From: a virus
Taxonomy: Duplodnaviria > Heunggongvirae > Uroviricota > Caudoviricetes
Direction: 5' to 3' (one strand)
Virus record (IMG/VR): IMGVR_UViG_2547132281_000002
Span: 1 to 25,592 of that record
DNA length: 25,592 bases
Position 1 is the stretch's first letter. Each line of letters opens with the position of its first letter. Position numbers and translations under genes: made by a program. A model generated the notes under the pieces. The model was given only the letters and a program-made list of their open reading frames with translations. It was not told the origin of the DNA and did not search any database. Shown one piece after another: positions 2,330 through 22,868 of the stretch.

Positions 2330-2560
2330 GTTCATCCCACGGCCAAAAACAGAGAAAGGAAACGACAGAGGCCCAAAAGCTCGTTTTCAGCACCTGTCGT
2401 TTCCTTTCTTTTCAGGGGGTATTTTAAATAAAAACATTAAGTTACGACGAAGAAGAACGGAAATACCTTAAACCGGAAAATTTTCATAAATAGCGAAAAC
2501 CCGCGAGGTCGCCGCCCCGTAACCTGTCGGATCGCCGGAAAGGACCCGCAAAATGATAAT
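2330..2560 (-). other. cos: cos region: cosN 12-nt cohesive-end sequence at 2506-2517, with cosB between cosN and Nu1
   Basis: The minus strand reads ...GTTACGGGGCGGCGACCTCGCGGGTTTTCGCTATTTATGAAAATTTTCCGG..., which is the lambda right-end/left-end junction as recalled (GGGCGGCGACCT overhang). Confidence 0.8.
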
Positions 2561-2716
2561 AATTATCATCTACATGTCACAACGTGCATCTACGCCATCA
2601 AACCACGTCAAATAATCAATTATGACGCAGGTATCGTATTAATTGATCCGCATCAACTTAACGTAAAAACAACTTCAGACAATACAAATCAGCGACACTG
2701 AATACGGGGCAACCTC

Positions 2717-2911
2717 ATGTCAACGAAGAACAGAACCCGCAGAACAACAACCCGCAACATCCGCTTTCCTAACCAAATGATTGAACAAATTAACATCGCT
2801 CTTGATCAAAAAGGGTCCGGGAATTTCTCAGCCTGGGTCATTGAAGCCTGCCGTCGGAGGCTAACGTCAGAAAAGATAGCATATACATCAATTAAAAGTG
2901 ATGAAGAATGA
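2717..2911 (+). CDS. ylcI: Small ribbon-helix-helix-like protein, DLP12 YlcI-like (DUF3950), 64 aa
   Basis: MSTKNRTRRTTTRNIRFPNQMIEQINIALDQKG.... Position just past cos corresponds to the lambda right-end small ORF. Confidence 0.7.
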   Translation: MSTKNRTRRTTTRNIRFPNQMIEQINIALDQKGSGNFSAWVIEACRRRLTSEKIAYTSIKSDEE

Positions 2912-3075
2912 ACATCCCGCGTTCTTCCCTCCGAACAGGACGATATTGTAAATTCACTTAATTACGAGGGCATTGCAGTAATTGAGTTGCAGTTTTACCA
3001 CTTTCCTGACAGTGACAGACTGCGTGTTGGCTCTGTCACAGGTTAAGTAGTTTGAATGATTAGCAGTTATGGTGA

Positions 3076-3282
3076 TCAGTCAACCACCAGGGAATAATCC
3101 TTCATATTATTATCGTGCTTCACCAACGCTGCCTCAATTGCCCTGAATGCTTCCAGAGACACCTTATGTTCTATACATGCAATTACAACATCAGGGTAAC
3201 TCATAGAAATGGTGCTATTAAGCATATTTTTTACACGAATCAGATCCACGGAGGGATCATCAGCAGATTGTTCTTTATTCAT
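3076..3282 (-). CDS. ybcW: DLP12 YbcW-like small protein, 68 aa
   Basis: [40 protein letters not shown].... AT-rich, convergent with ylcI. Recalled from the K-12 DLP12 gene set. Confidence 0.6.
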
Positions 3283-3567
3283 TTTGTCGCTCCATGCGCT
3301 TGCTCTTCATCTAGCGGTTAAAATATTACTTCAAATCTTTCTGTATGAAGATTTGAGCACGTTGGCCTTACATACATCTGTCGGTTGTATTTCCCTCCAG
3401 AATGCCAGCAGGACCGCACTTTGTTACACAACCAATACTATTAATTGAAAACATTCCTAATATTTGACATAAATCATCAACAAAACACAAAGAGGTCAGA
3501 CCAGATTGAAACGATAAAAACGATAATGCAAACTACGCGCCCTCGTATCACATGGAAGGTTTTACCA

Positions 3568-6352: not shown

Positions 6353-7435
6353 ATGAAAAAATTAACAGTGGCAATTTCTGCTGTAGCTGCATCAGTACTG
6401 ATGGCGATGTCTGCTCAGGCAGCTGAAATTTATAATAAAGACAGTAACAAGCTGGATCTGTACGGGAAAGTTAATGCTAAGCACTACTTCTCCTCTAATG
6501 ATGCAGATGATGGTGATACTACTTATGCCCGTCTTGGCTTCAAAGGTGAAACCCAAATCAACGATCAACTGACTGGTTTCGGTCAGTGGGAATATGAATT
6601 CAAAGGCAACCGCGCTGAATCTCAAGGTTCCTCCAAAGACAAAACCCGTCTTGCATTTGCAGGCCTGAAATTCGGTGACTACGGCTCAATCGATTACGGC
6701 CGTAACTACGGTGTAGCATACGACATCGGTGCGTGGACTGACGTTCTGCCAGAATTCGGTGGCGATACCTGGACCCAAACAGATGTATTCATGACTGGTC
6801 GCACCACAGGTGTTGCAACTTATCGTAACAACGACTTCTTTGGTCTGGTTGATGGCCTGAACTTTGCAGCTCAGTATCAGGGCAAAAATGACCGAAATGA
6901 AGTAACTGAAGCTAATGGCGATGGTTTCGGTTTCTCAACTACTTATGAGTATGAAGGATTCGGCGTGGGTGCAACCTATGCTAAATCTGATCGCACTAAT
7001 AATCAGGTTATCTACGGTAACAACGGTCTGAATGCTTCTGGTCAAAATGCTGAAGTATGGGCAGCTGGTCTGAAATATGATGCGAACAACATCTATCTGG
7101 CCACCACCTATTCTGAAACCCAGAACATGACTGTTTTTGGTAATAACCATATTGCCAACAAAGCACAAAACTTCGAAGCTGTTGCACAATATCAGTTCGA
7201 CTTCGGCCTGCGTCCATCCGTTGCTTACCTGCATTCTAAAGGAAAAGACTTGGGTGTTTGGGGTGATCAGGACCTGGTTGAATATGTTGATGTAGGTGCA
7301 ACCTATTACTTCAACAAAAATATGTCCACTTTTGTTGACTACAAAATCAACCTGATTGATAAGAGCGATTTCACGAAAGCATCTGGCGTTGCTACCGATG
7401 ATATCGTTGCTGTAGGTATGGTTTACCAGTTCTAA
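6353..7435 (+). CDS. nmpC: Outer-membrane general porin, NmpC/OmpD/Lc family, apparently intact, 360 aa
   Basis: [23 protein letters not shown] signal peptide, then [17 protein letters not shown]... and a C-terminal ...VAVGMVYQF. Lies between Q and the lysis genes on the opposite strand, as in DLP12. Confidence 0.85.
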
Positions 7436-12720: not shown

Positions 12721-13053
12721 TTAATGTGGTGTGCTTCGTGACAATAAATTAATAACCAACACACCGGCACAAATCAACATCATGCCTATAATGGCTGGCA
12801 GGTCCAGCCGTTGGCCGAAAAGTCCCCATGACAGTAAGCTAATCAGGACAATACCGACTCCTGACCAGATAGCATAAGCAATCCCTGTAGGAATATAAGC
12901 CAGCGTCTGAGCTAATAACCAGAATGATGCACAATAACAAATAATTGTACCAACAGATGGCCATAACCGTGTAAAACCTTCTGAAAACTTCATTAAGGTT
13001 GTACCAATGACCTCTGCAAGTATTGCACCACCAAGATAAATATAAGGGTTCAT
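12721..13053 (-). CDS. emrE: Small multidrug resistance (SMR) efflux transporter EmrE, 110 aa
   Basis: MNPYIYLGGAILAEVIGTTLMKFSEGFTRLWPSVGTIICYCASFWLLAQTLAYIPTGIAYAIWSGVGIVLISLLSWG... matches EmrE from memory, including the conserved membrane Glu in the first helix. Confidence 0.9.
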   Translation of the reverse strand: MNPYIYLGGAILAEVIGTTLMKFSEGFTRLWPSVGTIICYCASFWLLAQTLAYIPTGIAYAIWSGVGIVLISLLSWGLFGQRLDLPAIIGMMLICAGVLVINLLSRSTPH

Positions 13054-13120
13054 AGAATATTCTTTCCTGTTCAAACTGGAGAGAATTGTACTACAGTTTG
13101 AACTCAACTCACCTGTTTCA

Positions 13121-17100: not shown

Positions 17101-17362
17101 ACACAACGATACGGCAACTACCTGATTCACCGTTGCGATGACCGCTTAGATCCGCAGTTTGAATTTCAGCAGGCTTCGGGGAGTGCGAGGGGTGAAACGG
17201 ACGCGTGAACGTCGGTGTGACCAGCTGAAATTAACTCAACATTTCATACCTCAGTCGCTTCAACGAGGCGGCTTAGTTATGACAACCGGCGGCCATCCAC
17301 CGCCTGAATATGCGCAGAAGTCTCTATATGTTCAGCAGCCCAGCTTACGGGCAGGAGTTTTT

Positions 17363-17569
17363 ATGGTTCATCAACATTACGGAACACAGACCGTTAATCG
17401 CGGCGCGGTCATGCCAGGAATGCTGGTCAAACACAAAGATGGTACCTGGACTGCATCAGCTAATTTACGCGGACGGCTTTATCTGCATCGCGGCATCGAG
17501 CGCACTTATACCAGTGATTTGCTCGTGGAAGTTTTTCTCGACGGACGCGGTAACGGCCTGAATCACTAA
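17363..17569 (+). CDS. kil: Kil-like host cell-division inhibitor (Rac KilR-like), 68 aa
   Basis: MVHQHYGTQTVNRGAVMPGMLVKHKDGTWTASANLRGRLYLHRGIERTYTSDLLVEVFLDGRGNGLNH. AGGAG lies 6 nt before the ATG. The pattern HxxGT...PG..V.H..G....ASAN...VFL..G matches my recollection of KilR. It is the first gene of the leftward operon, immediately upstream of gam. Confidence 0.5.
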   Translation: MVHQHYGTQTVNRGAVMPGMLVKHKDGTWTASANLRGRLYLHRGIERTYTSDLLVEVFLDGRGNGLNH

Positions 17570-20143: not shown

Positions 20144-20365
20144 ATGGCAGACATCATTGATTCAGCATCAGAAATTGAAGAATTACAGCGCAACACAGCA
20201 ATAAAAATGCGCCGCCTGAACCACCAGACTATATCTGCCACTCATTGTTGTGAGTGTGGCGATCCGATAGATGAACGAAGACGCCTGGTCGTTCAGGGTT
20301 GTCGGACTTGTGCAAGTTGCCAGGAAGATCTGGAGCTTATCAGTAAACAGAGAGGTTCGAAGTGA
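20144..20365 (+). CDS. TraR/DksA-family C4 zinc-finger protein, 73 aa
   Basis: MADIIDSASEIEELQRNTAIKMRRLNHQTISATHCCECGDPIDERRRLVVQGCRTCASCQEDLELISKQRGSK has a coiled N-terminus and a CxxC-N17-CxxC finger. Confidence 0.75.
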   Translation: MADIIDSASEIEELQRNTAIKMRRLNHQTISATHCCECGDPIDERRRLVVQGCRTCASCQEDLELISKQRGSK

Positions 20366-20664
20366 GCGAAATTAACTCTCAGGCACTGCGTGAAGCGGCA
20401 GAGCAGGCAATGCATGACGACTGGGGATTTGACGCAGACCTTTTCCATGAATTGGTAACACCATCGATTGTGCTGGAACTGCTGGATGAGCGGGAAAGAA
20501 ACCAGCAATACATCAAACGCCGCGACCAGGAGAACGAGGAAATTGCGCTAACGGTAGGAAAGCTGCGCGTTGAGCTGGAAGCAGCAAAATCAAAACTCAA
20601 CGAGCAGCGTGAATATTACGAAGGTGTTATCTCGGATGGAAGTAAGCGTATTGCTGAACTGTAG
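20362..20664 (+). CDS. Ead/Ea22-like protein, 100 aa, GTG start overlapping the upstream stop
   Basis: (V/M)SEINSQALREAAEQAMHDDWGFDADLFHELVTPSIVLELLDERERNQQYIKRRDQENEEIALTVGKLRVELEAAKSKLNEQREYYEG..., recalled as similar to the Ea22-like proteins of lambdoid and Stx phages. Confidence 0.65.
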   Translation: MSEINSQALREAAEQAMHDDWGFDADLFHELVTPSIVLELLDERERNQQYIKRRDQENEEIALTVGKLRVELEAAKSKLNEQREYYEGVISDGSKRIAEL

Positions 20665-20914: not shown

Positions 20915-21529
20915 ATGAAAAAATCAACACTAATTTTAGGGCTTACGTTAATTGTCTCATCTCAAATACCATCGGCAATGGCAAAAAATGAATCAAAACT
21001 TTGGGTTGTTGTTGATCGAACGGAAAGACATACCTGCCCTTCAAGTAAATGTGGAGTGGCTGGGAAACTATTTTTCAGGGAAGGCGTAGATTTTCTAGAA
21101 AAAAAAGGTGAATGGGTTCGTATAACTGAGCCATATTCAGCCTCATGTGTGGGAGGGGAAAGCGAATATATTAAAGAAGGTAATAAATCCTGCACAAGAA
21201 AAAACGGAATCGTTAATGGCAAGTTTTCAGAATGGGTTAAACTTAGTGATCTTAGCAGTGAAAGGCCACCAGATCCTGCTGAAAATGCGAGCAGAAATGA
21301 TACCTTAATCAAAGGATCTGATGACTACCGTATATACAAAAAAGAGTTTTCTTCGGCAGCTAGGAAGTTAATAAGTGAAGGTGTCTGCACGGAGAGCGAT
21401 TTTAAGGAAGTTGGAGGGTGGATGGCATCAAGCAATAAGGGTGAAAACATCTATTTCACATATTGCGGAGGAATGACGTTGTCGAACAGAATATATCTAG
21501 ACGTTAAAAGTGGAAAGACTTTTAGATAA
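20915..21529 (+). CDS. Uncharacterised secreted/periplasmic Cys-rich protein, 204 aa (moron)
   Basis: Signal peptide MKKSTLILGLTLIVSSQIPSAMA with predicted cleavage before KNES. At least eight Cys in the mature part and no lipobox. AT-rich, with a good RBS (AAAAGGAAA). No family recognised. Confidence 0.6.
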   Translation: MKKSTLILGLTLIVSSQIPSAMAKNESKLWVVVDRTERHTCPSSKCGVAGKLFFREGVDFLEKKGEWVRITEPYSASCVGGESEYIKEGNKSCTRKNGIVNGKFSEWVKLSDLSSERPPDPAENASRNDTLIKGSDDYRIYKKEFSSAARKLISEGVCTESDFKEVGGWMASSNKGENIYFTYCGGMTLSNRIYLDVKSGKTFR

Positions 21530-21822
21530 TATGATATTACCAATGACAGCATTAATTTAATGCCTCCATAGAATTATCTCTAGGAAGTAAGTATAAGAAA
21601 AGTCCGCACAATGAGCTGCTGCGGGCTTTGTGTTATTCGCCATATTTTATGAAGCAAATACGACACTATAGATAATTAAGCGTTACTGGTTGTCGATTCC
21701 TCACTCATTCCTGCTGATGGCTGTCTTCTTGTATGTGTCATTGAAGGGTAATATCGCGTAAAAAGATACCGGAAGTATCCGCGCCGCCATGATTGTCTTT
21801 CTCCTGATGCAGGAAAAGCAGA

Positions 21823-22161
21823 ATGACTAAATCAGCAGCAGAGCGCAAAGCCGATCAGAGAGCCAAGCAAGCATCATCCGGTATGCGTAAGCTGGAGCTT
21901 GTACTTGATGCTCAGGAAATTGAAATGCTGGAGCGTAACTGAGCCACGCGCCGCTTCAGGCGTGCGCCTTACGAGTTTGGTGAGTACATAGCGTTACTGA
22001 GCCGCCAGGATGATGCACGTGTGCGCTGGCGTATAAAATCGATTAGCAGAAAACGTTGCCGTAAGTGCGGCGAGAGAGTTCCTGTTAATTCATGCCCGTG
22101 TAATGGTGACTCACAATACTGGGTGACCAAAGGCTGGCACGAAACAAAATTAATGATATAA
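21823..22161 (+). pseudogene. 112-codon zinc-ribbon ORF interrupted by one in-frame TGA at codon 40 (21940-21942)
   Basis: MTKSAAERKADQRAKQASSGMRKLELVLDAQEIEMLERN-[TGA]-ATRRFRRAPYEFGEYIALLSRQDDARVRWRIKSISRKRCRKCGERVPVNSCPCNGDSQYWVTKGWHETKLMI. Both halves are in the same frame. Confidence 0.4.
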
Positions 22162-22165
22162 ATCT

Positions 22166-22181
22166 CTGTGACATGTCACGG
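22166..22181. promoter_or_regulatory. Perfect 12-bp palindrome GTGACATGTCAC (within CTGTGACATGTCACGG) immediately upstream of the RBS of the 142-aa gene
   Basis: Palindrome at 22168-22179, GGAGG at 22180-22184, ATG at 22190. The CTG-N10-CGG arrangement is one mismatch from a LexA-box core CTG-N10-CAG. Confidence 0.3.
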
Positions 22182-22189
22182 AGGCGGCA

Positions 22190-22618
22190 ATGAAATTAGA
22201 CCAGCAATATCTAAAAGATCTACTTATCGCATTCGAAAAAACTTATGGCCCTGACACGATGCTTAGTGAACTAGAGGATAATGGCTTTAATAGATATGAC
22301 CAAAATTTTATTTTCCATATGCGATTATTATGTGACTACGAATTAATAGTTAGGGTTGATGGAAAACCTGGGTTCGGTCATATAATGTCCAACGAGTTAG
22401 GGGAAGGTGTTGAATATAGTTGGATCGAAGTACCACTGAGGTTGACAGCAAGAGGGCATGATTTTATTGCTGACTTACGTCAAAAGGAGGTCTGGCAAGC
22501 TATAAAAACAAACTTTAAGGATGAGGGGATTAGTACTCTTATGAGTGTTTCAAAATCACTAGCAAAAGGCTTTGCAAGAAAAAAAATAAAAGATATTACA
22601 GGAATAGATATTGAATAA
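22190..22618 (+). CDS. Uncharacterised 142-aa protein (AT-rich moron with its own RBS and terminator)
   Basis: MKLDQQYLKDLLIAFEKTYGPDTMLSELEDNGFNRYDQNFIFHMRLLCDYELIVRVDGKPGFGHIMSNELGEGVEYSWIEVPLRLTARGHDFIADLRQ.... Strong RBS and a downstream terminator. Family not recognised with confidence. Confidence 0.6.
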   Translation: MKLDQQYLKDLLIAFEKTYGPDTMLSELEDNGFNRYDQNFIFHMRLLCDYELIVRVDGKPGFGHIMSNELGEGVEYSWIEVPLRLTARGHDFIADLRQKEVWQAIKTNFKDEGISTLMSVSKSLAKGFARKKIKDITGIDIE

Positions 22619-22688: not shown

Positions 22689-22868
22689 TGGAGATGATAA
22701 ATGCACTTCCGAGTCACAGGTGAATAGAATGGAGAACCATTCAACAGAGTTATCGAAGCCGAGAACATCAGCGACTGCTATGACCACTGGATGCTGTGGG
22801 CGCAGATAGCACATGCAGACGTAACCAATATTCGAATTGAAGAACTGAAAGAACACCAAGCCGCCTGA

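Follow-up and report, generated by a model that had tools for sequence, protein, structure and literature searches.

The question raised by this locus is whether a short prophage ORF interrupted by one stop codon is a broken gene, a pair of small genes, or an intact gene in which the stop codon is decoded. The window, which is the whole stretch of 25,592 nt that was analysed (positions 1 to 25,592 of IMG/VR virus record IMGVR_UViG_2547132281_000002), contains a 112-codon frame at 21823–22161 on the plus strand, with a single internal stop (TGA at codon 40, 21940–21942) and a terminal TAA. In this the translation agrees with a first-pass annotation of the sequence, which had described one frame split by a lone TGA. 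The CxxC...CxC motif that it placed in the downstream half is likewise present, as C79-x-x-C82 ... C91-x-C93. A Shine–Dalgarno-like AGGA, read from the sequence and putatively functional, lies 8 nt upstream of the ATG at 21823 (21811–21814, plus strand), and the 39-aa stub that precedes the TGA is probably still translatable. The first in-frame start downstream of the TGA is a GTG, which opens a 46-aa sub-ORF over the Cys-rich tail (22021–22161, plus strand). A GTG start had been named in the first-pass annotation for a possible downstream product; re-initiation at this GTG would yield 46 aa, and not codons 41–112.

The ORF is very probably an ordinary nonsense pseudogene of a prophage accessory gene, in which the TGT codon of Cys40 has become TGA. 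This status is already known, since PGAP (RefSeq) marks the ORF as 'hypothetical protein; internal stop' in PI12, ATCC 8739 and F1267. The copy in Escherichia coli PI12 (KFU69_RS15515) has the same TGA and matches the ORF of the window with 100% identity, and the other two are close to it. That of ATCC 8739 (CJZ69_RS23645) has the same TGA on another haplotype (A5S, A10V, E37D and R47H), in which G80 and C99 are intact, and that of F1267 (R8807_RS16010) shares both the ORF and its TGA.

The DNA of the window belongs to a lambdoid prophage found at att-lambda, adjoining ybhC. Within the early-left (pL) operon, the ORF occupies the distal end, which is non-essential, upstream of xis-int, in the gene order gam, bet, exo ... 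TraR/DksA, truncated ea22, a 204-aa ORF, the ORF with the TGA, a DUF2513 gene, a small ORF, xis and int. The 204-aa ORF (20915–21529, plus strand) encodes a lipoprotein-like signal peptide, and has a weak SH3_3 match and a match to PHROG 8310 with E=2.9e-134. Insertion sequences are found nearby in other strains, with an IS3-family element directly 5' of the pseudogene in PI12 and IS1 directly 5' of the 204-aa ORF in ATCC 8739. Elsewhere in the prophage, comparison via locus L202 reveals cargo at about 6353–7435 (plus strand) and 12721–13107 (minus strand), comprising an OmpC-like porin gene, an EmrE-type SMR efflux gene and a ybcK-like recombinase gene. This cargo sits amongst DLP12-like late genes (essD, rrrD, quuD, rusA and nohD in the F1267 annotation), a gene set which is here located at att-lambda with lambda-type Int and Xis.

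When codon 40 is read as Cys, the translation matches PHROG 536 with E=1.6e-47 (residues 1–111 against profile positions 2–114 of 115), and a search of 5.8 billion proteins identified 532 homologous clusters, nearly all of exactly 112 aa. A chance ORF is ruled out by these matches. The hosts of the homologues include Escherichia, Salmonella, Citrobacter, Klebsiella, Raoultella and Edwardsiella, amongst others. Two alignments, of 22 and 71 members, show C40, C79, C82, C91 and C93 as invariant, the four tail cysteines forming the motif C79xxC82-x8-C91xC93 throughout the family, and G80, C99 and H106 as nearly so. From the conserved set of six cysteines and G80, the window copy keeps only C79, C82, C91 and C93, and amongst 23 aligned sequences it alone differs at C40, G80 and C99. 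Members of the family have an uninterrupted ORF of approximately 112 codons; the frame in the window is broken at codon 40, and the copy is thus a pseudogene of the PHROG 536 family and not a functional member.

The function of the intact protein can be outlined only tentatively. 'Transcriptional regulator', the name given to PHROG 536, is a label only. A Pfam search with the protein found no model for the family and no zinc-ribbon match, a Foldseek search gave no match, and no relatives in the PDB were found by sequence. In NCBIfam, there is a sub-threshold match to YbfE 'LexA regulated protein' (NF008671), of the CopG-type ribbon-helix-helix class. An AlphaFold model (mean pLDDT 69.9) contains helices at residues 5–19, 30–42 and 52–67 and an extended stretch at 22–28, with C40 near the end of the second predicted helix and an ill-defined Cys-rich tail. 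The region of the Cys motif is of low confidence (mean pLDDT 56–69 for residues 71–100), with no strands called. The zinc-ribbon character suggested in the first-pass annotation is therefore plausible as regards the cysteines, which are there, but the fold is not confirmed by the structure model. A reasonable guess from the predictions is that the intact protein may combine a weakly ribbon-helix-helix-like N-terminal half with a Cys-rich, metal-binding tail. One homologue from Salmonella enterica (P0099, 124 aa) has a 12-residue internal tandem duplication in the region of the second helix, in which APYDMSEYIALL occurs twice.

Two Escherichia phages, phiV10 and Chlobot, carry informative intact relatives. 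The gene of phiV10, gp55 (YP_512310.1), and its counterpart in epsilon15, gp49, also have 112 codons and are colinear with the whole ORF at about 91% nucleotide identity. The phiV10 frame is open, with TGT at codon 40 and the Cys pattern C40, C79, C82, C91, C93 and C99, whereas the window has TGA together with G80R and C99Y. The settings differ: in phiV10, a Uetakevirus podophage, the gene stands at the end of the genome, and the window gene lies in a lambdoid pL operon. Chlobot, an isolated phage, resembles the window more closely, with the same lambdoid order (204-aa ORF, gene, DUF2513, small ORF, xis, int) and 96.8% identity over 1051 bp. Unlike the window, it retains TGT at codon 40, G80 and C99, and it shows the state of the gene before the mutation. 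The open 112-codon frame of Chlobot lies at 17149–17487 of PP925838.1, where the deposited call covers only the last 46 codons (CDS0049, 17347–17487). In the coordinates of the corresponding locus (L003), the full frame is 2674–3012, and the depositors annotated instead a 105-aa 'UmuD-like protein' in another frame (2534–2851) and a 46-codon 'transcriptional regulator' (2872–3012). The Chlobot annotation across 2534–3012 of that locus is probably wrong.

Alignment of homologues at codon 40, a check proposed in the first-pass annotation, identifies TGT as the ancestral sense codon. In 84 loci (80 from IMG/VR and four annotated records), the codon is TGT in 65, TGC in one and TGA in 18; Cys is thus encoded at 66 loci, including Chlobot and phiV10 gp55. 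The stop therefore arose by a T>A transversion (TGT>TGA). TGT had been amongst the codons considered as the original (TGG, TGC, TGT or CGA), and the suggestion of a nonsense mutation holds. The same suggestion had called the mutation recent, a word that calls for some qualification, as the stop is old enough to have come to occupy two or more diverged haplotypes and three flank contexts.

The stop has a single origin. Every TGA allele tabulated is linked to a synonymous C at 21951 (plus strand; nt 129 of the ORF), nine bases 3' of the stop change, where the codon of R43 has changed from CGT to CGC. When both TGA groups are compared with the nearest intact allele (L011), they share just two derived bases, nt 120 T>A and nt 129 T>C. 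A scan of IMG/VR for exact patterns gave at least 35 matches for TGA with 129C and at least 152 for TGT with 129T, tallies in which some contigs are counted twice because the listed matches include other analysed loci, and there were no mixed types amongst the matches listed. The constant association of TGA with 129C, and the lack of mixed types amongst those matches, indicate one mutational origin.

The identical TGA is present in the three independent complete RefSeq genomes (PI12, ATCC 8739 and F1267) and at 15 IMG/VR loci. It is found on two diverged haplotype groups, the window type (A2T, G80R and C99Y) and the ATCC 8739 type, and accounts for 18 of the 42 lambdoid-context loci (about 43%). 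The simplest reading of these alleles is that the stop arose once and then spread by descent and recombination amongst E. coli prophages at att-lambda. One locus (L012, IMGVR_UViG_2711768040_000014; ORF 3001–3339) has a Chlobot-like 5' half with TGT, a window-like 3' half with R80 and Y99, and an open frame, and is an apparent recombinant. As both R80 and Y99 occur there with TGT, their origin may lie in an intact allele, with recombination joining them to the TGA later.

Selection is relaxed in the TGA alleles. Nei–Gojobori pN/pS is 1.01 for the TGA haplotypes, 0.29 for intact lambdoid-type alleles and 0.12 for intact phiV10-type alleles. Non-synonymous and synonymous segregating sites number 13 and 3 in the TGA alleles, a small count of 16 sites in all, compared with 25 and 46 in the intact phiV10-type alleles (Fisher p=0.0015); against the closest intact group, the lambdoid type, with 7 and 6, the difference is not significant (p=0.23). 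The copy thus has what is expected of a nonsense pseudogene, namely a sense codon in its orthologues, including that of Chlobot in the same gene context, and relaxed selection, the latter subject to the small counts just given. Given the fairly weak constraint in the closest intact group, part of the relaxation may predate the stop.

The positions of the changes are consistent with this. Family-conserved positions (K3, A10, R47, Y50, R66, G80 twice and C99) account for eight of the 13 non-synonymous changes in the TGA alleles, a share similar to the 66% expected without constraint. Non-synonymous changes occur both 5' of the stop (A2T, K3R, A5S, A10V and E37D) and 3' of it (at R47, R66, G80 twice and C99), and with changes accumulating on both sides of the TGA neither piece looks protected. 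In the window, codon 80 is CGT (Arg; 22060–22062, plus strand) in place of the nearly invariant Gly of the family, and codon 99 is TAC (Tyr; 22117–22119, plus strand) in place of its nearly invariant Cys; both are read here as secondary damage. On these sequence comparisons, the alleles appear to have drifted at about the neutral rate after the stop, with constraint relaxed.

The surrounding region bears other lesions. The small ORF downstream (22701–22868, plus strand) contains an independent nonsense mutation, TGG (Trp9) to TAG, at 22725–22727; it is intact in ATCC 8739, where it encodes 55 aa (WP_000545728.1), and is marked 'internal stop' by PGAP in PI12 and F1267. Within 800 bp, then, two ORFs have been knocked out separately, one by TGA and the other by TAG. 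The ea22-like gene (20362–20664, plus strand; identified via L202, 20336–20587) is truncated, and is described by PGAP as 'incomplete; missing C-terminus'. Just 5' of the pseudogene, at about 21683–21748 (plus strand), is a humD/umuD-like (S24 peptidase) relic of about 65–100 bp, with 83–88% identity to P1/D6-like phage-plasmids, which PGAP annotates as 'DNA repair protein, incomplete' in ATCC 8739. The gene itself has been damaged independently at other loci of lambdoid context (ORF 3001–3339 in each). In L038, C79 has changed from TGC to TGA, together with G104R, and in L039–L042 the 3' end is replaced after G104, with loss of the conserved W105 and H106. No disruption was found amongst 42 phiV10-type copies. 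The neighbouring TAG, the truncated ea22, the humD relic and the lesions at other loci indicate that the region is eroding generally.

Against a plain nonsense pseudogene, the alternative that survives best is leaky termination, in which a few percent of UGA would be read as Trp by near-cognate tRNA-Trp, giving a useful full-length protein from a down-tuned gene. Of the stop codons in E. coli, UGA is the one most prone to leak, and the allele is common amongst lambdoid-context loci. In all 18 TGA loci the TGA is the only interruption of the frame, which is compatible with residual function but is also as expected for 339 nt at no more than 3% divergence. The linked 129C slightly strengthens a 6-bp hairpin (CGCGCC/GGCGUG, loop GCUUCA; 21947–21964, plus strand) that is predicted by folding to start 4 nt after the UGA, changing a U.G pair to C-G in its stem. 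This hairpin does not, however, exceed shuffled sequence in stability (z=0.11 and z=-0.55), and intact TGT alleles fold about equally well at the site; hitch-hiking would explain the presence of 129C in the stem. Read-through would also put Trp at an invariant Cys, and in the window the product would have three changes at conserved positions. Downstream of the stop, pN/pS is about 1, with the conserved R47, R66, G80 and C99 hit. The +4 base is G, and +4 G is not known to be amongst the weakest UGA termination contexts. Functional read-through, raised at first as low-level read-through of the TGA, is thus at odds with the neutral evolution downstream, the loss of conserved residues and an unremarkable hairpin, and a down-tuned gene kept useful by leaky termination is very unlikely.

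A related and somewhat more doubtful idea is that selection keeps the TGA allele, either because the gene burdens the lysogen and its silencing is adaptive, or because the UGA is read through at a tuned, low level with help from the hairpin. If true, this would explain the share of about 43% in lambdoid-context loci, the three flank contexts and the frame that is still open downstream.

Very improbable is a division into two functional products, a 39-aa N-terminal peptide and a Cys-rich one of 46 aa that would be initiated on its own at the GTG at 22021. The AGGA 5' of the ATG is intact and the stub is probably made; phrog_34005, a group of 40-residue proteins, matches the stub, and similar stubs are annotated elsewhere. 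The sampled homologues are nevertheless single genes, nearly all the 532 clusters being of 112 aa. All three intact genes in the alignment share the GTG and the weak AGGA that precedes it with a 10-nt spacer, so neither arose as a start signal. The depositors of Chlobot did annotate the 46-aa piece, but the frame in that phage is open over the full 112 codons, which makes the 46-aa call a probable annotation artefact. The non-synonymous changes on both sides of the stop also count against two maintained products, and the stub would end within the predicted helix 30–42. The two-product option of the first-pass annotation is accordingly not borne out.

Decoding of the UGA as selenocysteine is scarcely credible. 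On this reading, UGA would replace a Cys codon as in Sec/Cys pairs and be decoded by SelB and tRNA-Sec to give a phage selenoprotein, and it is true that the TGA falls exactly at an invariant Cys position and that a hairpin is present 3' of it. A UGA where homologues have Cys is also the point of likeness to the Sec-UGA of E. coli fdhF. A Rfam scan of 21700–22300 at E≤10 gave no SECIS and no other match, while the identical scan of a 606-nt piece of E. coli fdhF, the positive control, detected SECIS_2 (87.1 bits, E=1.7e-19), and the scan is therefore able to find a SECIS of the E. coli type. Counting from the U of the UGA, the apex of the hairpin in the window falls at +14 to +19, compared with about +22 to +25 for the apical loop of the fdhF control, and its stability is that of shuffled sequence. 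The hairpin lacks a bulged U and a GU-containing loop, which are features of the E. coli SECIS. Unlike fdhF, the window ORF has no purifying selection 3' of the UGA, with changes at the conserved R47, R66, G80 (twice) and C99, and no similarity to the formate dehydrogenases, the known selenoproteins of E. coli. The hairpin, for which an earlier check had been suggested, is thus an ordinary one.

A sequencing or assembly error, with T as the true base and TGT as the codon, has a single point in its favour, the difference of one base, and can be dismissed, as the same TGA with its linked 129C recurs in the three complete genomes and the 15 IMG/VR loci on two diverged haplotypes, so that the error named at first as a possible refutation did not materialise.

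The reading as a nonsense pseudogene suggests the following history. The ancestor would have been an intact 112-aa accessory gene of the phiV10 gp55/epsilon15 gp49/PHROG 536 family at the far end of a lambdoid pL operon, in which a single T>A transversion turned the TGT codon of the invariant Cys40 into TGA. Translation would now most likely stop after 39 residues, inside the second predicted helix, and this cut would remove the remaining helical domain and the entire Cys-rich C-terminal module. We infer that the 39-aa stub has no activity and that the prophage can do without the gene. The dead allele may then have spread and diversified, by descent and recombination amongst E. coli prophages at att-lambda, with changes at a neutral rate that in the lineage of the window would include the loss of the conserved G80 and C99.

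The result settles the ancestry of the codon as TGT (Cys40) and the single shared origin of the stop, and a positive-controlled test removes the tempting reading of the TGA as one half of a Sec/Cys pair or as a site of read-through. The pseudogene itself is of little importance beyond annotation quality. The PHROG 536 family, a well-conserved 112-aa phage protein with six conserved cysteines, could merit study in phages in which the gene is intact, such as Chlobot and phiV10, and its characterization is a separate question from the pseudogene described here.
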